Assembly (NCBI GenBank): GCA_965248265.1
Contig: CBDFJF010000001.1
Coordinates: 192,001-256,000 of the forward strand
DNA from: Candidatus Latescibacterota bacterium
GTDB lineage: Bacteria; Latescibacterota; UBA2968; UBA8231
Reading direction: 5' to 3'
Length of the DNA stretch: 64,000 nt
Shown here piece after piece: positions 51,053 to 53,709 of the stretch. Under the pieces are notes generated by a model. The model ran no database searches. It was given only the letters and a program-made list of their open reading frames with translations, and had not been told where the DNA came from. Position 1 is the stretch's first letter; each line of letters starts with the position of its first letter. Made by a program: the position numbers and the translations under genes.

Positions 51053-51862
51053 CTACGTTTCCTGTTTGCCGACAGCGCCGGTGATCAGTGCTTCCGCCCG
51101 TTTGGGGCTGACAAGATTCAAGCCGAGCAGGGCCTTGAGCTTCCAGGGGATGATCAAGTCGCGCTGCCGGTTTTGCATGGCCTTGGCGATGGCGGCACAG
51201 GCGTCTTCGACAGAGACTGACTCCTTGCTGTGCTTGCGCGACGACTCACCCAGGGCATCGCCGTCGGCGCCAAAGGCCCGTTTGCGCAAATCGGTTCCCC
51301 GCAGCCAATGGGGCAGGACGGTCAACACGTCCACGCCGCTGTCGACAAGCTCCATTCTCAGAGCCTCACAGAAGCCCTGCAGAGCATGTTTCGAGGCAAC
51401 ATACCCAGTGTGGCGGGGTACCCCGATTTTACTCTGGATGGAGGTAATCGCCACGATCATGCCCCCGCTGGCCTTTAGATGGGGCAACGCATAATAGATG
51501 CAGTTCACGGCGCCGAGGTAATTGACCTCCATCAGTTTGCGGAAGATGCCTAGATCCTCGACATCCTCGAACGAGGCCCACATGCTGATCCCGGCATTGG
51601 CTATCACATAATCGACGCGGCCGTACTGGGCCACCGTCTTGTCGATCAACCCCTTGCAGTCCATCTCATCAGTCACATCGCCGATCACGGCCTGCGCCTG
51701 ACCCCCGAGAGAACGACAGCTCTCCGCCACCTCCTTCTGCCTGTCCTCTTCCGGCGAAAACAACGTCAGGTTGGATCCAGCGGTGGCGAACTCCTGCGCC
51801 AGTGCGGCGCCGAGCCCGGATGAGGCTCCCGTGATGATGACGGATTTGCCCTCGTGACCCAT
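51053..51862 (-). CDS. SDR oxidoreductase, DHRS7B-like
   Basis: TGASSGLG, NAGIS, MEVNYLG, SIQSK, YVASKHALQGF. Confidence 0.88.
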   Translation of the reverse strand: MGHEGKSVIITGASSGLGAALAQEFATAGSNLTLFSPEEDRQKEVAESCRSLGGQAQAVIGDVTDEMDCKGLIDKTVAQYGRVDYVIANAGISMWASFEDVEDLGIFRKLMEVNYLGAVNCIYYALPHLKASGGMIVAITSIQSKIGVPRHTGYVASKHALQGFCEALRMELVDSGVDVLTVLPHWLRGTDLRKRAFGADGDALGESSRKHSKESVSVEDACAAIAKAMQNRQRDLIIPWKLKALLGLNLVSPKRAEALITGAVGKQET

Positions 51863-53709
51863 CAGCTCGCATCCGAGTCGCCGGCGAAGACGCCGTTGCC
51901 GATACCGAATACGTTCTGCGGATCCATCGCCTTTTTCGTCTGCCGCATCACGGCGATCGCGTTCTCGGATTGCACCTGGGGCAGGAAGCCGTGCCGCAAT
52001 TTACCGACTCCGTGGTGGTGGGAAAGAGAGCCACCGTTGTCGAGGATGACCTGTCGCAGGGCACGCTCAATGTCGTGGTAAACATCGTGAGGGTGATCCA
52101 GCCCTTTGGCGGAAAACCCCAGCGTGAAGTAGATGCACACCCCGCTGTGGTAAGTCTGGGTCACCCGATACGCCAGGTACGGCATGCCGGCGATACCCGC
52201 CTCCTGCGTTCGCTTGCTGAGTTCCTCCTGCACAGCGGCAGTGACGACATGTATGCGATCCCACGGAACAGAGGTCTCGAAACTCTCTCCCATGATCTGA
52301 AACTGGTTGAAGAAATCCCGGATGTAGGCGATCCCGAAGGTGAGGGTGTAACCGCGCTTGCCGTTGCTGGCACCGGCGCTCAACGCTCCGTGTTTCTTCG
52401 CGAGTCTGAAAATCACCTCGCGTTGGTGATCGACCTCACCCTTGGTACCCTCCATCACGATCGTCGAGGCCACCATCTCGAATGGCTTGAAACGCTTGAT
52501 GTGCAGGACGACGAACTTCTGCACCTTGTCCATGATGCTCTTGAAGAACGACGGGGCCGGCTTGAGTGCCTGGCCGAAGCGAAACTCGAAATTGTTTACC
52601 AGGCGGATGCTCGCCGGCAGCCCACCTTCCTGCCGAAGGTCCCGCAGAAACTGTACTCCGACTTCGAACCGGGGGAACACCAGCGCTCCGTATTCACGAA
52701 CGTCGGGAAGTGGATGGATCTTGATTGTCGCCCTGGTGATGATACCGAAGTTGCCCTCACTGCCGAACAGGAACACCCGCGGCTGAATGCCGACCGAGTT
52801 GCGTGGTGTCGCGTGACGGGTTTCGATCTCTCCCGTCGGGGTCACCAGGGTGGCTTCGAGGACGATGTCTTCGATGTTACCGTAGCGGTTCTTCTTCATG
52901 CCGCTGGCATTGGTGGCGATCCAGCCTCCCAGGGTCGACAACTCGACGCTGTCGGGATCATGGCCGGAGGTGAAACCGTGCTTGCCGAGTGACCGCTCCA
53001 GTTCCTTGCCCGAAATCCCGGCTTCGACGCAAGCTACCTGATTGGCTTCGTCGAGAGAGACAATGTGGTTCATTCGCCGCATGTCGACGGAAACGATCGT
53101 TCGCTGCTCGGACGCGGGGAGGGTCAAGGCTCCGCTGACGTTGGTGCCGCCGCCGTAGGGCACCAGGCACATGTCGCTGTCGTTGGCCAGTTCCACCAGG
53201 CGACTCACGTCCTCGTCCCTCTGCGGATAAACCACCACATCAACCAGCCGGCGCAGCGGACCTATGTACAGGAGGCGATAGACCTCGTCAACGCTGACTT
53301 GGCCATGGCTGTGAACCAGGCGATCCTTGTCGTCGACGGAGATTTGATCCGCTGCCAGAACCTTGCCCAGGGCGGCGCGAAGTCCCTCATCCAGTTTCGA
53401 AGGAGCGATCTTCTTGTCGGCGATTTCCGGAACGACATCTTCCTGTCGAATCGGCAGCCCCAGTACTTCCTCGGCGAACGGTATGAAATTGGGCATGCTG
53501 TACCCGGAAAGCGGGTAGCGACTGCCCGTGACCTTGACGCTTCGGGGGCCGTCGAACTCGAAAACCGTGTCGGTGTACCCCCAACGGTGATTCTGCCGCT
53601 CGCCATCCGACTGGTCGTAATAGACATCCAGCGTGTCCTGATCGCCCTGCTTAGCCACCAGGAAGAGGACGACTATGACAGCCAGTGCGGCGGGAATCAA
53701 GAATTCCAT
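51862..53709 (-). CDS. Alkyldihydroxyacetonephosphate synthase (AGPS)-like FAD oxidoreductase with N-terminal TM anchor
   Basis: WGY, [74 protein letters not shown]. Confidence 0.88.
   Translation of the reverse strand: [615 protein letters not shown]

Follow-up and report, generated by a model that had tools for sequence, protein, structure and literature searches.

A conserved AGPS–SDR gene pair in Latescibacterota and its probable part in an oxygen-independent ether-lipid pathway

Alkyl-dihydroxyacetonephosphate synthase (AGPS, also ADPS; EC 2.5.1.26) has been solved from guinea pig (4bby) and Dictyostelium (2uuu). The eukaryotic enzymes carry a peroxisomal targeting signal (PMC3509576), and the legend of Figure 5 in the same article reports Arg352, Tyr508 and Arg447 of the Dictyostelium protein as important for catalysis. 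Reduction of acyl- and alkyl-dihydroxyacetone phosphate (DHAP; EC 1.1.1.101) is assigned to DHRS7B/PexRAP and DHRS7 in mammals and to Ayr1 in yeast (PMC7517302, PMC13200781). For bacterial AGPS, genetic support comes only from Myxococcus, with a minor contribution of the enzyme there (PMC9131029). Here, we analyze a 64,000-nucleotide stretch from a Candidatus Latescibacterota bacterium (assembly GCA_965248265.1, contig CBDFJF010000001.1, positions 192,001 to 256,000; hereafter, the window), in which a gene for a 615-aa AGPS homologue (51862..53709, minus strand) overlaps the start of a gene for a 269-aa classical short-chain dehydrogenase/reductase (SDR; 51053..51862, minus strand), a candidate acyl/alkyl-DHAP reductase. 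Based on sequence comparison, we consider it likely that the two proteins catalyse successive reactions in an ether-lipid pathway of the eukaryotic type that needs no oxygen. In this pathway, a fatty acyl-CoA reductase (FAR), a putative acyltransferase termed protein X, AGPS and the SDR would jointly make 1-O-alkyl-glycerol-3-phosphate.

AGPS homologues of Latescibacterota are already in print. They are given for 67 of 92 Black Sea genomes of the phylum (PMC11868695), and matches to both agps and elbD are given for sponge-associated members (10.64898/2026.06.23.733905); these surveys list AGPS homologues in many uncultured phyla and are silent on the origin and use of alkyl-DHAP. A study of the origin of eukaryotic plasmalogens found the phylogenetic signal of AGPS insufficient (its section 11) and could not place the enzyme, and its text leaves the reductase step untreated and uses the term DHRS7B 0 times (PMC13012113). 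In the literature searched we found no publication on a bacterial acyl/alkyl-DHAP reductase, the AGPS–SDR pair or protein X, although supplementary tables may list such genes.

An earlier note on this DNA, made from the sequence alone, had taken the FAD enzyme for an animal-type AGPS, and all comparisons agree. The open frame extends back to a GTG at 53751, and the motifs quoted in the note all lie in the translation of 51862-53751(-); the likely start is the ATG at 53709, as the closest homologues (P0006–P0008) begin with the same MEFLIP residues. Among named sequences, the closest homologues come from Candidatus Latescibacterota metagenome-assembled genomes. Pfam models identified the two FAD domains, FAD_binding_4 (PF01565, 1e-38) and FAD-oxidase_C (PF02913, 5.6e-34). 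A phmmer search against all PDB chains returned guinea-pig AGPS (4bby) with 498 bits and E 3.1e-148 over residues 55-619, followed by Dictyostelium AGPS (2uuu, E 1.5e-89). The alignment, which begins at residue 55, includes the AGPS-specific N-terminal domain, so that the window protein shares with the animal and Dictyostelium enzymes both FAD domains and this additional domain. Clustering with GlcD/D-lactate-dehydrogenase-type oxidases, the outcome named in the note as speaking against AGPS, was not what we found: the best non-AGPS chain reached only 88.6 bits, and oxidoreductases of that type appeared from E 3.7e-24. NCBIfam, which holds no AGPS model, gave glcD as its best match at 162 bits against a cut-off of 567.9, a score so far below the threshold that the protein is not a GlcD.

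The catalytic residues are also retained. The guinea-pig mutants 4bca and 4bc7 differ from the wild type at one Tyr and one Arg, which align with Tyr541 and Arg383 of the window protein, and Dictyostelium Arg352, Tyr508 and Arg447 align with Arg383, Tyr541 and Arg478, assuming an offset of +3 between chain index and residue number. Arg383, Arg478, Tyr541 and His578-580 are invariant in 12 diverse bacterial AGPS sequences (alignment A2). The window protein thus has the catalytic Tyr, both active-site Arg residues and the His-His-His loop in common with the animal and Dictyostelium enzymes; we take the His triplet to have a role in AGPS catalysis. The gene is single-copy in its own genome, where other VAO-family/GlcD-like paralogues are 20-35% identical over partial lengths. 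Together, these sequence data confirm that 51862-53709(-) encodes a full-length AGPS homologue. Separately, a 1060-aa homologue (P0060) joins AGPS domains to aminotransferase-type domains (PF00155, PF01212, PF01053) and may be a fusion or a gene-calling artefact.

Unlike its eukaryotic counterparts, the window AGPS appears to have a single hydrophobic helix at its N-terminus (53644..53709, minus strand) instead of a peroxisomal targeting presequence, which was not found; in eukaryotes that presequence concerns where the enzyme resides and has no bearing on catalysis. The best 19-residue window of this segment has a mean Kyte-Doolittle hydropathy of 2.77, and a comparable segment is present in all 109 AGPS sequences with at least 30 residues before the WGY motif, among 121 examined (the window protein, P0001, and 120 homologues); the remaining 12 have shorter N-termini and fall outside this count. 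The membrane anchor proposed in the earlier note is thus a predicted and conserved feature of the family.

Two features of the SDR (P0002) that the note had pointed out, its SIQxK and YxASKHA motifs and the overlap of its start with the AGPS stop, are present in the DNA. At the junction (51860..51864, minus strand), GCGAGCTGATGGGTCAC, the A of the AGPS TGA stop is also the A of the SDR ATG, giving the TGATG arrangement with an overlap of one base, which suggests translational coupling. The protein contains TGASSGLG, SIQSK and YVASKHA, matches adh_short (PF00106) at 7.6e-46, and scores 283.8 bits against NCBIfam NF004825 (PRK06181; cut-off 215). In an alignment of 24 AGPS-linked SDRs, which are 45-72% identical to P0002 (alignment A3), Ser141, Tyr154 and Lys158 are invariant, as are Gln143 and His151 and, in the substrate loop, Trp186, Thr190 and Arg193. 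These last three residues would be well suited to binding a substrate that carries a phosphate group. As in DHRS7B, DHRS7 and Ayr1, the window SDR is thus of the classical type, with a TGxxxGxG motif and a Ser-Tyr-Lys triad, and it is placed directly after AGPS.

The fold and profile comparisons are less specific. Foldseek searches with a model of the SDR (pLDDT 92.2) ranked 6ci9 first, followed by a long run of 11-beta-HSD1 chains and HSD17B13. Its fold is thus nearest to the 11-beta-HSD1 group of membrane-associated lipid SDRs, to which DHRS7B presumably also belongs. In a search with the family profile, 2jah and 2et6 (clavulanate dehydrogenase and a hydroxyacyl-CoA dehydrogenase) outscored 11-beta-HSD1, and the ESM Atlas returned generic bacterial SDR clusters only. 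DHRS7B has an N-terminal transmembrane domain (PMC7517302), whereas no 19-residue window of the bacterial SDR reaches a mean Kyte-Doolittle hydropathy of 1.6. With these rankings and no anchor, the assignment of an acyl/alkyl-DHAP reductase role draws on gene context and not on specific homology; on that basis, the SDR probably carries out the pathway step that follows AGPS.

This context is widely conserved. We examined the organism's own genome (G000, contigs C1 and C2) with 40 relatives (class sample, n=41), using thresholds of at least 60% identity for the AGPS type and E up to 1e-50 for the SDR, and a phylum sample of 151 genomes. In the class sample, 35 genomes have AGPS, and exactly these also have the SDR, although a contig end truncates the copy in G020. 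Searches for the P0002-type SDR were negative in G023, G026, G030 and G038, which have no AGPS, and in G012 and G028, which have only an AGPS of 46% identity. In 30 of the 34 relatives with both genes, AGPS and the SDR share a strand and lie within 2 kb of each other, the distance being within 100 nt in 22 of the 30; in G001 and G024 they lie on separate contigs. Across the phylum sample, AGPS was present in 109 genomes and the SDR in 104, all SDR-bearing genomes being AGPS-bearing in the family and genus tallies and none of the 42 AGPS-free genomes having the SDR; the sampled genomes are related and not independent, so these counts describe a pattern and are not a statistic.

Conservation of the gene pair, a check proposed in the earlier note, extends beyond the phylum. 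In 65 of the best 80 named loci carrying AGPS homologues, under seven taxon labels plus unlabelled records, an SDR of the P0002 type lies downstream of AGPS in the same orientation, and in 54 of them it is within 200 nt. By taxon, this arrangement was observed in 40/43 loci of Latescibacterota, 11/14 of Gemmatimonadota/-etes, 5/5 of Acidobacteriota, 5/5 labelled only as bacterium, 1/1 each of Poribacteria and Trueperaceae, 1/2 each of Neomarinimicrobiota and Planctomycetota, and 0/7 of Chloroflexota. Among the 15 loci without the SDR, three (L077, L093 and L118) end right after AGPS and two (L063 and L064) have about 1 kb left. These sequence comparisons indicate that the pairing of AGPS and SDR is not due to chance. 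Separately, in genus g19 small genes with DUF433, DUF5615 and DUF6036 split AGPS from the SDR (L037:5210-6646; L039:4206-4541) and look like inserted toxin-antitoxin-type modules, and in G013 a 537-aa open reading frame (ORF) with a weak PhyH match separates the two genes.

In G028, the stop codon of an AGPS subtype of 46% identity overlaps the start codon of a different SDR gene (P0181 type) immediately downstream, and the same arrangement occurs in G012. This second SDR is 30% identical to P0002; its best NCBIfam match is mycolate reductase, and its PRK06181 score is below the cut-off. That two unrelated SDR types occupy one slot behind two AGPS subtypes is the strongest of the comparative arguments for a ketoreductase being required immediately after AGPS. 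We also considered the P0181 type as a general substitute and rejected it, as searches of G023, G026 and G030, which have no AGPS, did not detect it.

Of the further pathway genes that the earlier note proposed to look for, a FAR is present. The own-genome copy encodes 585 aa (G000 C2:3857966-3859720) with NAD_binding_4 (1.9e-62) and Sterile domains, and FAR was found in 40/41 class genomes, AGPS-free ones included. A FAR with a Sterile domain reduces acyl-CoA fully to the alcohol. In the own genome it is directly followed by lgt (prolipoprotein diacylglyceryl transferase), with a Mla-type lipid transport cluster nearby. In families f2, f3 and f4, a gene of about 650 codons, encoding protein X, lies between FAR and AGPS, and the complete cluster FAR-X-AGPS-SDR was found in 25/80 named loci, L078 and L110 being examples. 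GPAT_C was not found in the own genome, and the PF01553 protein P0127 (451 aa, G000 C1:1282321-1283673) was rejected as a GNPAT candidate since it occurs in 7/41 genomes and does not track AGPS. For the GNPAT/PlsB-like gene that the earlier note proposed to look for, the candidate is protein X, with a modelled acyltransferase fold.

Protein X is present in 40/41 class genomes; the own copy (G000 C1:2732388-2734355) is 45% identical to clustered X, and further homologues include L037:1155-3209 and L049:2328-4322. A library of 1.84 billion clusters yielded only 51 representatives (E up to 0.001), of which 7 have a length of 600 aa or more. Sequence models are silent on the family: two homologues had no Pfam match (E up to 0.01), X had no NCBIfam match, and a PDB sequence search with the homologue P0128 matched no chain. 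The C-terminal ~200 residues contain an HX4D motif (consensus LPTHQSLLDH), in which His452 is invariant and Asp457 is present in 11/13 rows and replaced by Glu in 2; two more conserved blocks, YPxGT and VVIVPxAxRG, come after it and are also acyltransferase-like. In an AlphaFold model built from 13 sequences (pLDDT 83.3), the N-terminal ~430 residues are helical. Foldseek matched the model to PlsC (5kym; probability 1.00, target TM-score 0.61) and also to squash GPAT (1k30/1iuq), PatA and LpxM; PF01553 clusters in the ESM Atlas at a score of 0.89 provide a lead only. As it is unmatched by the PF01553 and PF19277 models, X is a relative of the GPAT/AGPAT acyltransferases at the level of fold and not a member of their sequence models. 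It shares HX4D and the acyltransferase fold with GNPAT, PlsB, PlsC and plant GPAT, and differs from them in its extra helical N-terminal region of ~430 residues and in having no Pfam, NCBIfam or PDB sequence match. From the model, we propose that X is a new kind of acyltransferase. An ORF of 652 aa in the window (57852-59810, minus strand) was rejected as a candidate X, having neither similarity to X nor a Pfam match.

The gene content resembles that of the Myxococcus AGPS operon, in which AGPS is grouped with FAR, an acyltransferase and a Rossmann enzyme that depends on NAD(P) (PMC9131029, PMC13012113). Here, FAR and acyltransferase X are separate genes, and neither PF01553 nor GPAT_C recognizes X; the reductase belongs to the classical SDRs, with 269 aa, and not to the epimerase/dehydratase type; and the order is FAR-X-AGPS-SDR, of which the own genome keeps only AGPS-SDR linked. 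Many relatives also carry proteins of ~1440 aa that combine FAR, AMP-binding-like and acyltransferase-like parts, reminiscent of the myxobacterial ElbD pathway (elbB-E) (PMC9131029, 10.64898/2026.06.23.733905); this reading comes from motifs and frame lengths and not from a family scan (for example, L045:2247-6569, minus strand). The own genome has instead a stand-alone 585-aa FAR and two PF01553 matches, and no ElbD-like protein was found in it with the queries used. The ~1440-aa proteins were considered as relatives of X and rejected, their C-terminal parts having no similarity to it.

Based on these data, we propose a plausible mechanism for the pathway, in which the enzymatic activities, the choice of cofactor, the compound that X acylates and the lipid formed are inferred. 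The AGPS homologue would be tethered to the cytoplasmic membrane by its one N-terminal helix. Protein X would make acyl-DHAP, and the FAR-type fatty acyl-CoA reductase would supply the fatty alcohol. AGPS would then bind 1-acyl-DHAP on its FAD, release the fatty acid and add the fatty alcohol, giving 1-O-alkyl-DHAP. The SDR, probably translated in step with AGPS, would reduce the C2 ketone with NAD(P)H to yield 1-O-alkyl-sn-glycerol-3-phosphate, which a PlsC-type enzyme could acylate. As no CarF/PEDS1 (PF10520) was found, the products would be alkyl (plasmanyl) lipids and not plasmalogens. The proposal in the earlier note that the two genes act together in an ether-lipid pathway hence gains good comparative support from the 65/80 loci, the co-occurrence, the second SDR type in the same slot and the FAR/X clusters, while the activities themselves are predicted from sequence.

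Several findings weigh against this proposal. The CarF/PEDS1 model matched neither the own genome (0/1) nor any of the 151 phylum genomes, and it was also silent in all 14 control genomes, so that this negative does not establish absence. In the own genome, FAR and X are unlinked to the AGPS–SDR pair. AGPS and SDR are far apart in G015 and G025, and five AGPS-bearing genomes of the phylum sample (G012, G028, G057, G099 and G105) are without a P0002-type SDR. No SDR of this type was found within 5 kb of AGPS in the seven Chloroflexota loci and one Planctomycetota locus; in six of the seven Chloroflexota loci (L120-L122, L125, L128 and L130), whose AGPS shows about 53-55% identity, an ORF of 255-281 aa unmatched by our queries follows AGPS. 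The SDR itself comes from a very large family and its sequence carries no substrate-specific signal, in keeping with the caution in the earlier note that DHRS7B-like SDRs are widespread. After strand beta-2, at the cofactor-selecting position, it has Ser-Pro-Glu where most family members have Ala-Arg-Arg or Ser-Arg, which allows no decision between NADPH and NADH. We considered the Chloroflexota downstream ORF as a reductase and rejected it: three copies were scanned without a Pfam match, and the L121 translation is Pro/Thr-rich and membrane-anchored. In three Chloroflexota loci, a fatty-acid beta-oxidation multifunctional enzyme precedes AGPS and this ORF.

The Chloroflexota loci bear on the alternative that survives best, in which AGPS is a true alkyl-DHAP synthase, the SDR is a fatty aldehyde/alcohol oxidoreductase serving the alcohol side, and another enzyme reduces alkyl-DHAP. 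AGPS-bearing lineages without the SDR imply another reductase there, and, judging from the PDB neighbours, the broad SDR type of P0002 acts on many lipid alcohols and ketones. However, a complete FAR with a Sterile domain already exists in nearly all class genomes, including AGPS-free ones, and the SDR tracks AGPS and not FAR; the conserved substrate loop, which would suit a phosphorylated substrate, would also speak against a fatty aldehyde or alcohol. We regard this alternative as unlikely.

The pair could also serve breakdown. The EC 1.1.1.101 reaction is written as reversible, and the SDR could oxidize alkyl-glycerol-3-phosphate to alkyl-DHAP, on which AGPS would exchange the alkyl chain, so that environmental ether lipids are degraded or remodelled. 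The run labels of close DNA matches point to marine samples, an environment in which ether lipids are common (10.64898/2026.06.23.733905). Against such a role, the pair clusters with FAR and an acyltransferase-fold protein in 25/80 loci, a biosynthetic set, and its conserved neighbours include no lipase, kinase or transporter, which makes degradation quite improbable and less credible than a role on the alcohol side. That the AGPS homologue is an ordinary VAO/GlcD-type FAD oxidase or dehydrogenase with another substrate, its adjacency to the SDR being meaningless, finds some footing in Pfam and NCBIfam naming generic FAD domains only and in the NCBI annotation of homologues as 'FAD-binding oxidoreductase', but is the least credible reading of all, given that AGPS outscores every other solved family by 410 bits, the aligned AGPS-specific domain and retained catalytic residues, the separate GlcD-like paralogues in the genome and the conservation of the pair under seven taxon labels.

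Returning to the proposed biosynthetic pathway, the phospholipid entry genes of these bacteria raise a further idea. In the class sample, own genome included, PlsY (PF02660) and GpsA (PF07479) were found in 0/41 genomes, the models matching 8/14 and 10/14 control genomes, respectively, and the own genome yielded no match to PlsX or the PlsB-type GPAT_C (PF19277). Across the phylum, PlsY occurred in 0/115 sampled genomes of families f1-f4 versus 29/36 of other families. Five genomes of these other families were compared further: in three, PlsY and GpsA are present and X is not, whereas G043 has X and is without PlsY and GpsA. Such a pattern would be expected if X were the sn-1 acyltransferase in these lineages, and DHAP is a plausible acceptor. 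In the fifth, G053 (96% complete), none of PlsY, GpsA and X was found, leaving its first acylation step unexplained. A tentative extension, which we consider possible but rather doubtful, is that the class dispenses with the usual bacterial entry into phospholipids, where GpsA makes glycerol-3-phosphate and PlsX/PlsY or PlsB acylates it: X would acylate DHAP, a ketoreductase, for instance the AGPS-linked SDR, would make lysophosphatidic acid, and AGPS would divert part of the flow to ether lipids. Against this idea, AGPS-free genomes with X were without both SDR types at the thresholds used.

The own assembly comprises 7.32 Mb in 2 contigs, with completeness of 92% and contamination of 4.4%. 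A scan for promoters and terminators across 48800-57000 gave 2 versus 2.0 and 7 versus 5.4 in shuffled sequence and is uninformative on an operon. Three contigs from one marine metatranscriptome (run X1, word share 0.07), 156-188 nt long, match AGPS with 2-14 mismatches, covering 51942-52167 and 53216-53368, and a fourth piece spans 34 nt only; the library may hold DNA, the source may be a relative, and uncovered parts are uninformative. A tblastn search of plasmids with AGPS returned distant FAD oxidoreductases only, at no more than 33% identity.

On the same strand, a protein with HDOD and response-regulator receiver domains (49087-51015, minus strand) starts 37 nt 3' of the SDR; it was not seen beside the pair within 1.5-kb flanks in the loci of 19 relatives. 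Upstream of AGPS, also on the same strand, 53852-56715(-) encodes a second SDR (gluconate-5-dehydrogenase-like), an FKBP isomerase and a PRK06154-type thiamine-pyrophosphate enzyme, and a PhyH-family dioxygenase lies on the opposite strand (56887-57870, plus strand). Farther away, 43292-46666(+) encodes a GT4 glycosyltransferase and then a B12-binding radical SAM protein with DUF4070, a class that includes lipid-modifying enzymes.

If the proposed pathway holds, the reductase partner and the FAR-X-AGPS-SDR cluster would provide a complete, expressible gene set for oxygen-independent alkyl-glycerol lipid synthesis. Its occurrence in widespread marine and sediment bacteria would bear on the sources of alkyl-glycerol ether biomarkers, and the clusters add material to the question of how plasmalogen synthesis arose in eukaryotes. 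As to protein X, it could be a missing bacterial acyltransferase for DHAP or glycerol-3-phosphate. Should the tentative acyl-DHAP route also prove true, the AGPS–SDR pair would sit on the main route to all membrane lipids of these organisms, as a free-living bacterial counterpart of the peroxisomal pathway.

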